The notes below the pieces were generated by a model that saw nothing but the letters and a program-made list of their open reading frames with translations, was not told where the DNA came from and did not search any database. Below, piece after piece: positions 51,995 to 52,010 of a stretch of 64,000 bases of DNA (the stretch's first letter is position 1; each line of letters opens with the position of its first letter). The DNA lies in assembly GCF_058153355.1 (NCBI RefSeq), contig NZ_CM177019.1; one strand, 5' to 3'. Position numbers and translations under genes: made by a program.

Positions 51995-52010
51995 CTGTAT
52001 ATAAAAACAG
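51995..52010 (+). promoter_or_regulatory. LexA box (SOS operator) upstream of sbmC
   Basis: CTGTATATAAAAACAG matches the CTGT-N8-ACAG consensus, about 17 bp upstream of the sbmC start. Confidence 0.6.

Follow-up and report, generated by a model that had tools for sequence, protein, structure and literature searches.

The 20-bp palindrome TACTGTATATAAAAACAGCA, which ends 14 nt before the ATG of sbmC (gyrI) in the 64,000-nt stretch of DNA analysed here (the window), is with very little room for doubt the LexA operator (SOS box) of the Escherichia coli sbmC/gyrI promoter. This identification rests on the sequence of the site, its score against a LexA matrix, the identity of the downstream gene, the conservation of the site across genera and the identity of its core to that of the K-12 site. 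Descriptions of sbmC as an SOS gene with a LexA box go back to 1995. The box found here is this published SOS box and is already known; it is a textbook regulatory site that can be recognised from raw sequence, and SOS biology gains nothing new from it. Its practical use is confined to annotation, where the box, the CRP-S site upstream of it and the gene can be confidently labelled. Novelty is restricted to two details, a minority C allele within the box and the variation of promoter layout between genera.

The initial annotation had singled out the 16-mer CTGTATATAAAAACAG in the sbmC promoter region as a LexA box, and the score, the conservation and the K-12 literature support this. The 16-mer is real, but the functional unit is the 20-mer (Table 1) and not the 16-mer alone. 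The 20-mer agrees with the consensus TACTG(TA)5CAGTA at 17 of the 20 positions, with perfect CTGT...ACAG arms, and sits within the 118-nt dacD-sbmC intergenic region. The 16-mer occurs exactly once in the window, on the plus strand, and was found in none of 100 dinucleotide shuffles. The looser pattern CTGT-N8-ACAG occurs twice in the window against 0.55 expected; the second copy, CTGTCACTCGCGACAG at 62836, was rejected as a chance occurrence, as it has a GC-rich center and is absent among the best matrix scores.

Table 1. Coordinates of the sbmC regulatory elements and of the neighboring genes in the window
Feature	Position	Strand	Remarks
sbcB	49106-50581	-	
dacD	50736-51908		
CRP-S site core TGCGAG-TCTG-CTCGCA, TGCGAGTCTGCTCGCA	51937-51952		center 51944/51945; identical to K-12
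-35-like hexamer TTGTGG	51970-51975	+	predicted; TTG conserved in 90-96% of species
-10 candidate C-TATACT (sigma-S-like)	51990-51996	+	predicted; overlaps left arm of the box
-10 candidate TACTGT	51993-51998	+	predicted; overlaps left arm of the box
20-bp LexA (SOS) box TACTGTATATAAAAACAGCA	51993-52012		best matrix site of the window; same place in 77/80 species
16-bp core CTG-N10-CAG of the box	51995-52010	+	unique exact match
Box position 19	52011	+	C here, T in K-12; outside the 16-bp core
Shine-Dalgarno GGAGG	52018-52022	+	94-100% conserved over 78 species; 4 nt before ATG
sbmC (gyrI), DNA gyrase inhibitor, 157 aa	52027-52500	+	ORF, NF007451; annotated in strain 7/2 (RefSeq)
yeeA	52698-53756		
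tmaR/yeeX	53862-54257		

The downstream gene had been taken to be the gyrase inhibitor sbmC, and its identity is secure. The ORF matches the NCBIfam SbmC equivalog NF007451 over its full length (residues 1-157 of 157) with 302.9 bits against a cut-off of 179 (E = 5e-91), and 701 bp around it are present, annotated as sbmC and dacD, in 5418 of the 5426 complete E. coli genomes. The window is a piece of E. coli chromosome with the standard context sbcB / dacD-sbmC-yeeA-tmaR. Around sbmC it is identical to strain 7/2, but it is not that strain, since the O-antigen gene cluster (21793-31995) and everything after 54767 differ. Between 54767 and 64000, beyond tmaR, an IS-rich island takes the place of the CP4-44-like yeeS-cbtA region of strain 7/2; it contains ISL3, IS3 and IS110 transposases, a PfkB kinase, a phosphotriesterase-related protein and a DMT transporter.

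The LexA matrix was built from 17 of the 18 E. coli K-12 SOS boxes that had been recovered by MEME upstream of UV-induced K-12 genes (PMC3009722, Table 4), with the sbmC box removed against circularity. Sites were scored both by the Berg-von Hippel heterology index (HI) and by log-odds, with an asymmetric (oriented) and a symmetrised version of the matrix. The sbmC box scores HI 1.15 and 27.9 bits with the former and HI 3.19 and 25.7 bits with the latter. The 17 known operators, scored by leave-one-out, range over HI 0.95-16.6 (umuD at 0.95, polB and dinG at 12-17), and the sbmC box matches the best of them (umuD, istR-2). It also ranks at the top of the approximately 128,000 positions on both strands of the 64 kb, with the next independent site at HI 9.8-11.4, and chance would yield at most about 5e-4 to 2e-3 hits of this score per window. 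A poor score against a LexA matrix had been named at the outset as the result that would tell against the box; the score obtained is a good one (HI 1.15-3.19, 26-28 bits). The second-best LexA-like score in the window, that of AACTGGATAGCTATGCAGAA at 34314-34333 (HI 9.8-11.4), falls inside ugd when coordinates are converted to strain 7/2 and is probably a chance match. The third-best, TACTGATTAAATTATCAGTA at 20418-20437, is a near-perfect CTG-N10-CAG palindrome with a weak LexA-like HI of 10.3-12.4; it is located between gne and galF, with the galF ATG (20604) 166 nt further downstream, and is devoid of the T and A beside CTG and CAG.

Conservation was assessed in the sbmC loci of 80 species representatives, collected by a protein-based scan and drawn from genera including Escherichia, Citrobacter, Salmonella, Enterobacter, Lelliottia, Kluyvera, Leclercia, Klebsiella, Raoultella, Atlantibacter, Pseudocitrobacter and others. 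In the 60 nt that precede the sbmC ATG, the top-scoring site has an HI of at most 10 in 73 of the 80 species and at most 14 in 77 (median 5.45), whereas 4251 control segments of 60 nt from the same loci yielded none at HI ≤12 and one at HI ≤14. In the 77 species boxes 14-24 nt separate the end of the 20-mer from the sbmC ATG, the CAG of the right half-site is invariant (77/77), and the TG of the left half is 100% conserved across genera. When 79 upstream regions, made up of the window, 77 species loci and one K-12-like strain, were aligned with MAFFT, the columns of the arms TG(T)…(A)CAG were fully conserved and stood out against a variable, gapped spacer upstream of the box. The claim of an sbmC box is thus reinforced by its occurrence at the same place throughout these enterobacterial species, with three exceptions that look like secondary changes. 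In Escherichia sp. MOD1-EC7003 (L081, 1380-1500) the box is deleted and sbmC matches residues 1-82 only; in Klebsiella michiganensis DSM 25444 (L078, 1400-1500) a GC-rich insert replaces the box; and in Intestinirhabdus alba (L076, 1280-1500) the box lies 166 nt upstream, behind a GC-rich insert.

The left half-site is more variable in its first base. It reads GTG instead of CTG in 24 species belonging to Enterobacter, Lelliottia, Leclercia, Silvania and others (L025, L028-L035, L037-L041, L053, L055, L057, L060, L064, L067-L069, L079-L080), and ATG in 11 species, mostly of Klebsiella and Raoultella (L045, L048, L054, L059, L062-L063, L065, L070, L072-L074). Given the number of species with GTG or ATG in the left arm, whole genera carry an operator with one imperfect arm.

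These data leave hardly any credibility to the idea that the palindrome is nothing more than an AT-rich -10 element of the promoter, with a chance likeness to a LexA site and no action of LexA on it. AT-rich palindromes are common in promoters, and -10-like hexamers do overlap the box on both strands (TATACT, TACTGT and TATAAA; TATAGT on the minus strand). However, no more than 2e-3 sites of 26-28 bits are expected by chance per window, and conservation extends beyond the A/T center to the LexA contact triplets TG...CAG at their exact 10-nt spacing. Moreover, UV/SOS induction of sbmC has been published for both K-12 and Salmonella.

The account of the site as the sbmC box stands with a second refinement, namely that this strain has C at 52011 in place of the T of K-12. 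The occurrence of this allele was followed in 15 comparison sequences, sampled by eye in place of a full allele count. The 16-bp core is identical in 13 of these 15, all 13 of which print without indels. Of the other two, E69, a separate GTDB species with a clean row, has CCAG instead of ACAG, and in the row of 7_12_30A a 1-nt indel garbles the alignment print. T is found at 52011 in 13 of the 14 clean rows, the exception being strain 7/2, which shares the C of the window. An 81-bp megablast census of alleles returned 1326-5002 of the 5426 genomes depending on the haplotype, and its exact-match counts are lower bounds because the AT-rich box seeds poorly when words of 28 nt are required. By these counts, exact 81-mers of the window type (C) are present in at least 389 complete E. 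coli genomes, those of the K-12 type in at least 645, and those of a third type (...CAGTG, SCPM) in at least 736. As the exact 81-mer with C is found in so many complete genomes, the C at 52011 is no sequencing error.

The change from T to C at position 19 raises the HI by 0.6-1.0, and a small loss of LexA affinity relative to K-12 is predicted from the sequence; given that position 19 is T in 74 of the 77 species, binding to the C allele may be somewhat weaker. A far stronger effect, whereby the C at 52011 would substantially weaken the operator and leave sbmC partly derepressed and weakly SOS-controlled in this lineage, appears improbable. In its favor, T prevails at this position not only in those 74 species but also in all other E. 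coli haplotypes sampled, and the C makes the operator less like the K-12 20-mer, which equals the umuD operator. Yet 6 of the 17 recognised boxes of E. coli have CAGC as well (lexA, ruvA, uvrD, cho, polB and ftsK), the small rise in HI leaves a site that is still better than most SOS operators, and the allele persists in at least 389 complete genomes. We regard as doubtful, albeit less so, the combined proposal that the C allele measurably lowers LexA affinity relative to K-12, with higher basal SbmC and tolerance of gyrase poisons as the outcome, and that the activator geometry of the promoter was rewired in other genera with SOS control kept. If this were true, the lineage with the C allele would be more tolerant to gyrase poisons such as microcin B17, quinolones and phleomycin. 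Natural operator variation of this kind is a minor lead, with a possible bearing on the basal tolerance of toxins and drugs that target gyrase.

Within the dacD-sbmC spacer, conservation across approximately 20 genera is highest in the block TGCGAGTCTGCTCGCATAAT (51937-51956). Its core, TGCGAGTCTGCTCGCA, carries the CRP-S signature TGCGA-N6-TCGCA (C6/G17), and 51937-51952 corresponds to the Sxy-dependent CRP-S site already published for sbmC. A CRP site with a TGCGA-type core had been predicted at K-12 sbmC (Cameron & Redfield 2006, PMC1635313); in qPCR experiments Sxy induced the gene 6-fold with an absolute requirement for CRP and cAMP, and the promoter was found to use a class I mechanism (PMC1635313). 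The TAAT/TACT trailing the CRP-S core is nearly invariant and, together with the preceding CA, reads as a -10-like CATAAT. Two other readings of this block were discarded. A sigma-54 promoter in CTGGCA...TGCGA has an unfit GG-to-GC spacing. A hairpin or terminator formed by TGCGAG-TCTG-CTCGCA is not followed by a T run, and its stem would be broken in most species by an A in place of G at 51950; moreover, the block matches the published CRP-S site.

The position of the CRP-S site bears on that of the core promoter. With its center at the class I distance of -61.5, the predicted start falls at about 52006, inside the LexA box. In the UV tiling-array study the '100 nt upstream' of the induced sbmC transcript begins with AGGCCTGACC (PMC3009722, Table 8), and by coordinate conversion these 100 nt correspond to 51901-52000 of the window, which places the induced 5' end of K-12 at about 52001. 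The candidate -35 hexamer TTGTGG is followed by TACTGT after 17 nt and by TATACT (51991-51996) after 15 nt, and the columns of these candidate -10 elements are conserved to different degrees (T51991 0.91, A51992 0.78, T51996 1.00, T51998 0.96). C-TATACT, read as a sigma-S-like extended -10 element, would fit the RpoS dependence reported for sbmC (Oh et al. 2001) and the alternative sigma use suspected at this promoter (PMC5999292). The proximal start was not detected in the Kim 2012 K-12 TSS data, which were obtained without DNA damage (PMC3415461). In the same data the only start listed for sbmC lies 571 nt upstream, inside dacD, with 2 reads (PMC3415461). This dacD-internal start (window ~51407-51457) is preceded by TTGACG-17-CATACT, and the table further lists a yeeA start 318 nt upstream, inside sbmC (window ~52330-52380), with 8 reads. 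This suggests internal promoters and read-through in the dacD-sbmC-yeeA row.

A simple sigma-70 scan gave no call for the proximal promoter (TTGTGG / TACTGT); across the region it returned 3 promoter-like matches against 1.2 expected from shuffles, and on the plus strand of the intergenic region its sole match was CTGGCA-18-CATAAT (51927-51956). This match raises the possibility that the box is real but that the main promoter is CTGGCA-18-CATAAT, with a start at about 51963, and that LexA, bound at about +30 to +50, serves as a downstream roadblock. The CATAAT/CATACT element is indeed highly conserved (A51952 1.00, T51953 0.96, A51954 1.00, T51956 0.97), although the published CRP-S site and its A/T flank explain the conservation of the block without a promoter, and the Klebsiella/Raoultella group lacks the -35-like CTGGCA. 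Given that the CRP-S site accounts for the block, that the class I mechanism puts the start some 61 nt downstream of the CRP center, inside the box, and that the tiling array places the 5' end of the UV-induced transcript at about 52001 and not at 51963, we consider a roadblock distinctly improbable. Even less probable, to the point of being very unlikely, is control by the box of a minus-strand promoter, TTGATG-16-TATAGT (52016 to 51989), directed antisense into the 3' end of dacD. The consensus scan gives a 9/12 match that overlaps the box, but a TATA-rich palindrome yields -10-like hexamers on both strands by construction, and the minus-strand match is probably a by-product of this. Furthermore, its -35-like hexamer falls in the poorly conserved stretch 52011-52017, and no supporting transcript was seen in the Kim 2012 TSS data (without DNA damage).

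The most likely arrangement remains one in which LexA represses by covering the -10 region and start of a CRP-S-activated promoter. As the exact -35, -10 and +1 positions are predictions, we infer occlusion as the mode of repression with the same degree of caution. A LexA dimer would bind the 20-bp palindrome and, owing to the overlap of the latter with the -10 region and start of a weak promoter, would keep RNA polymerase off. Activation would otherwise proceed from the CRP-S site, centered about 61 bp upstream, by cAMP-CRP together with Sxy, and in stationary phase the promoter is reportedly served by sigma-S. Upon DNA damage, RecA-stimulated self-cleavage of LexA is expected to free the operator, and the SbmC then made would limit gyrase-mediated DNA breakage.

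SOS induction of the gene, with which the initial annotation had found the box consistent, is supported for the window by published work, both SOS/UV induction and CRP/Sxy dependence being taken from the K-12 and Salmonella literature. In K-12 the sbmC box was the top-scoring SOS-box instance found by MEME upstream of UV-induced genes (PMC3009722), an sbmC promoter reporter responds to UV (PMC5999292), and sbmC mRNA goes up during an SOS time course (PMC11002266). In a review, sbmC is grouped with the E. coli SOS genes, which precede a separate group headed 'Potential SOS box' (PMC6590174). In terms of function, SbmC reportedly protects against microcin B17 (Baquero et al. 1995), and its overexpression leads to phleomycin resistance (PMC6231494).

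In the species loci the promoter seems to take one of two forms. In the first, a CRP-S site of the TGCGA type stands 50-53 nt from a box with CTG or GTG; in the second, the site is of the TGTGA type and the box, 37-39 nt away, of the ATG type. The second is seen in Klebsiella, Raoultella, Pseudocitrobacter and some other Enterobacteriaceae (L045, L048, L054, L058-L059, L061-L063, L065-L066, L068, L070-L074), where a mostly canonical-looking TGTGA-N6-GCACA, 37-39 nt from the core of the LexA box and ~40-90 nt upstream of sbmC (position 1501), replaces the TGCGA-N6-TC(A/G)CA found at 50-53 nt, the spacer being shorter by about 14-16 nt. The layout of these loci suggests an activator geometry of another, class II-like kind with the SOS box retained, and the two forms together suggest that the activator arrangement was rewired under continued SOS control.

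Among known systems, the closest is the sbmC promoter of E. coli K-12, whose box TACTGTATATAAAAACAGTA shares 19 of 20 bases and the whole 16-bp core with that of the window at the same gene and locus; there too the 20-mer ends 14 nt before the ATG, and the surrounding promoter, including the CRP-S site, is identical. The difference lies at position 19, in that the K-12 box ends in CAGTA and the window box in CAGCA. As the K-12 sbmC and umuD 20-mers are identical (PMC3009722, Table 4), the same single base at 52011 separates the window site from the umuDC operator of K-12. The umuDC operator, however, serves another gene in another promoter context, and the sbmC promoter additionally depends on CRP-S/Sxy and, according to the literature, on RpoS and H-NS. 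In Salmonella enterica, sbmC likewise has one box near the start codon, with 16 nt between the 20-mer and the ATG in S. arizonae/diarizonae; it has a different spacer sequence (TACTGTATATAAGTACAGTA / CACTGTATATAAATACAGTG) and is 2 nt further from the ATG than that of the window. The published description of Salmonella sbmC gives one box, 21 bp from the ATG, with an HI of 6.32 and 3.55-fold induction by nalidixic acid (PMC8072944). With the CRP-S promoters of ppdD and yrfD/hofM the window shares the C6/G17 signature of its upstream TGCGA-N6-TCGCA site. Unlike ppdD and yrfD, sbmC is no DNA-uptake gene, and it also has a strong LexA operator over its predicted core promoter.
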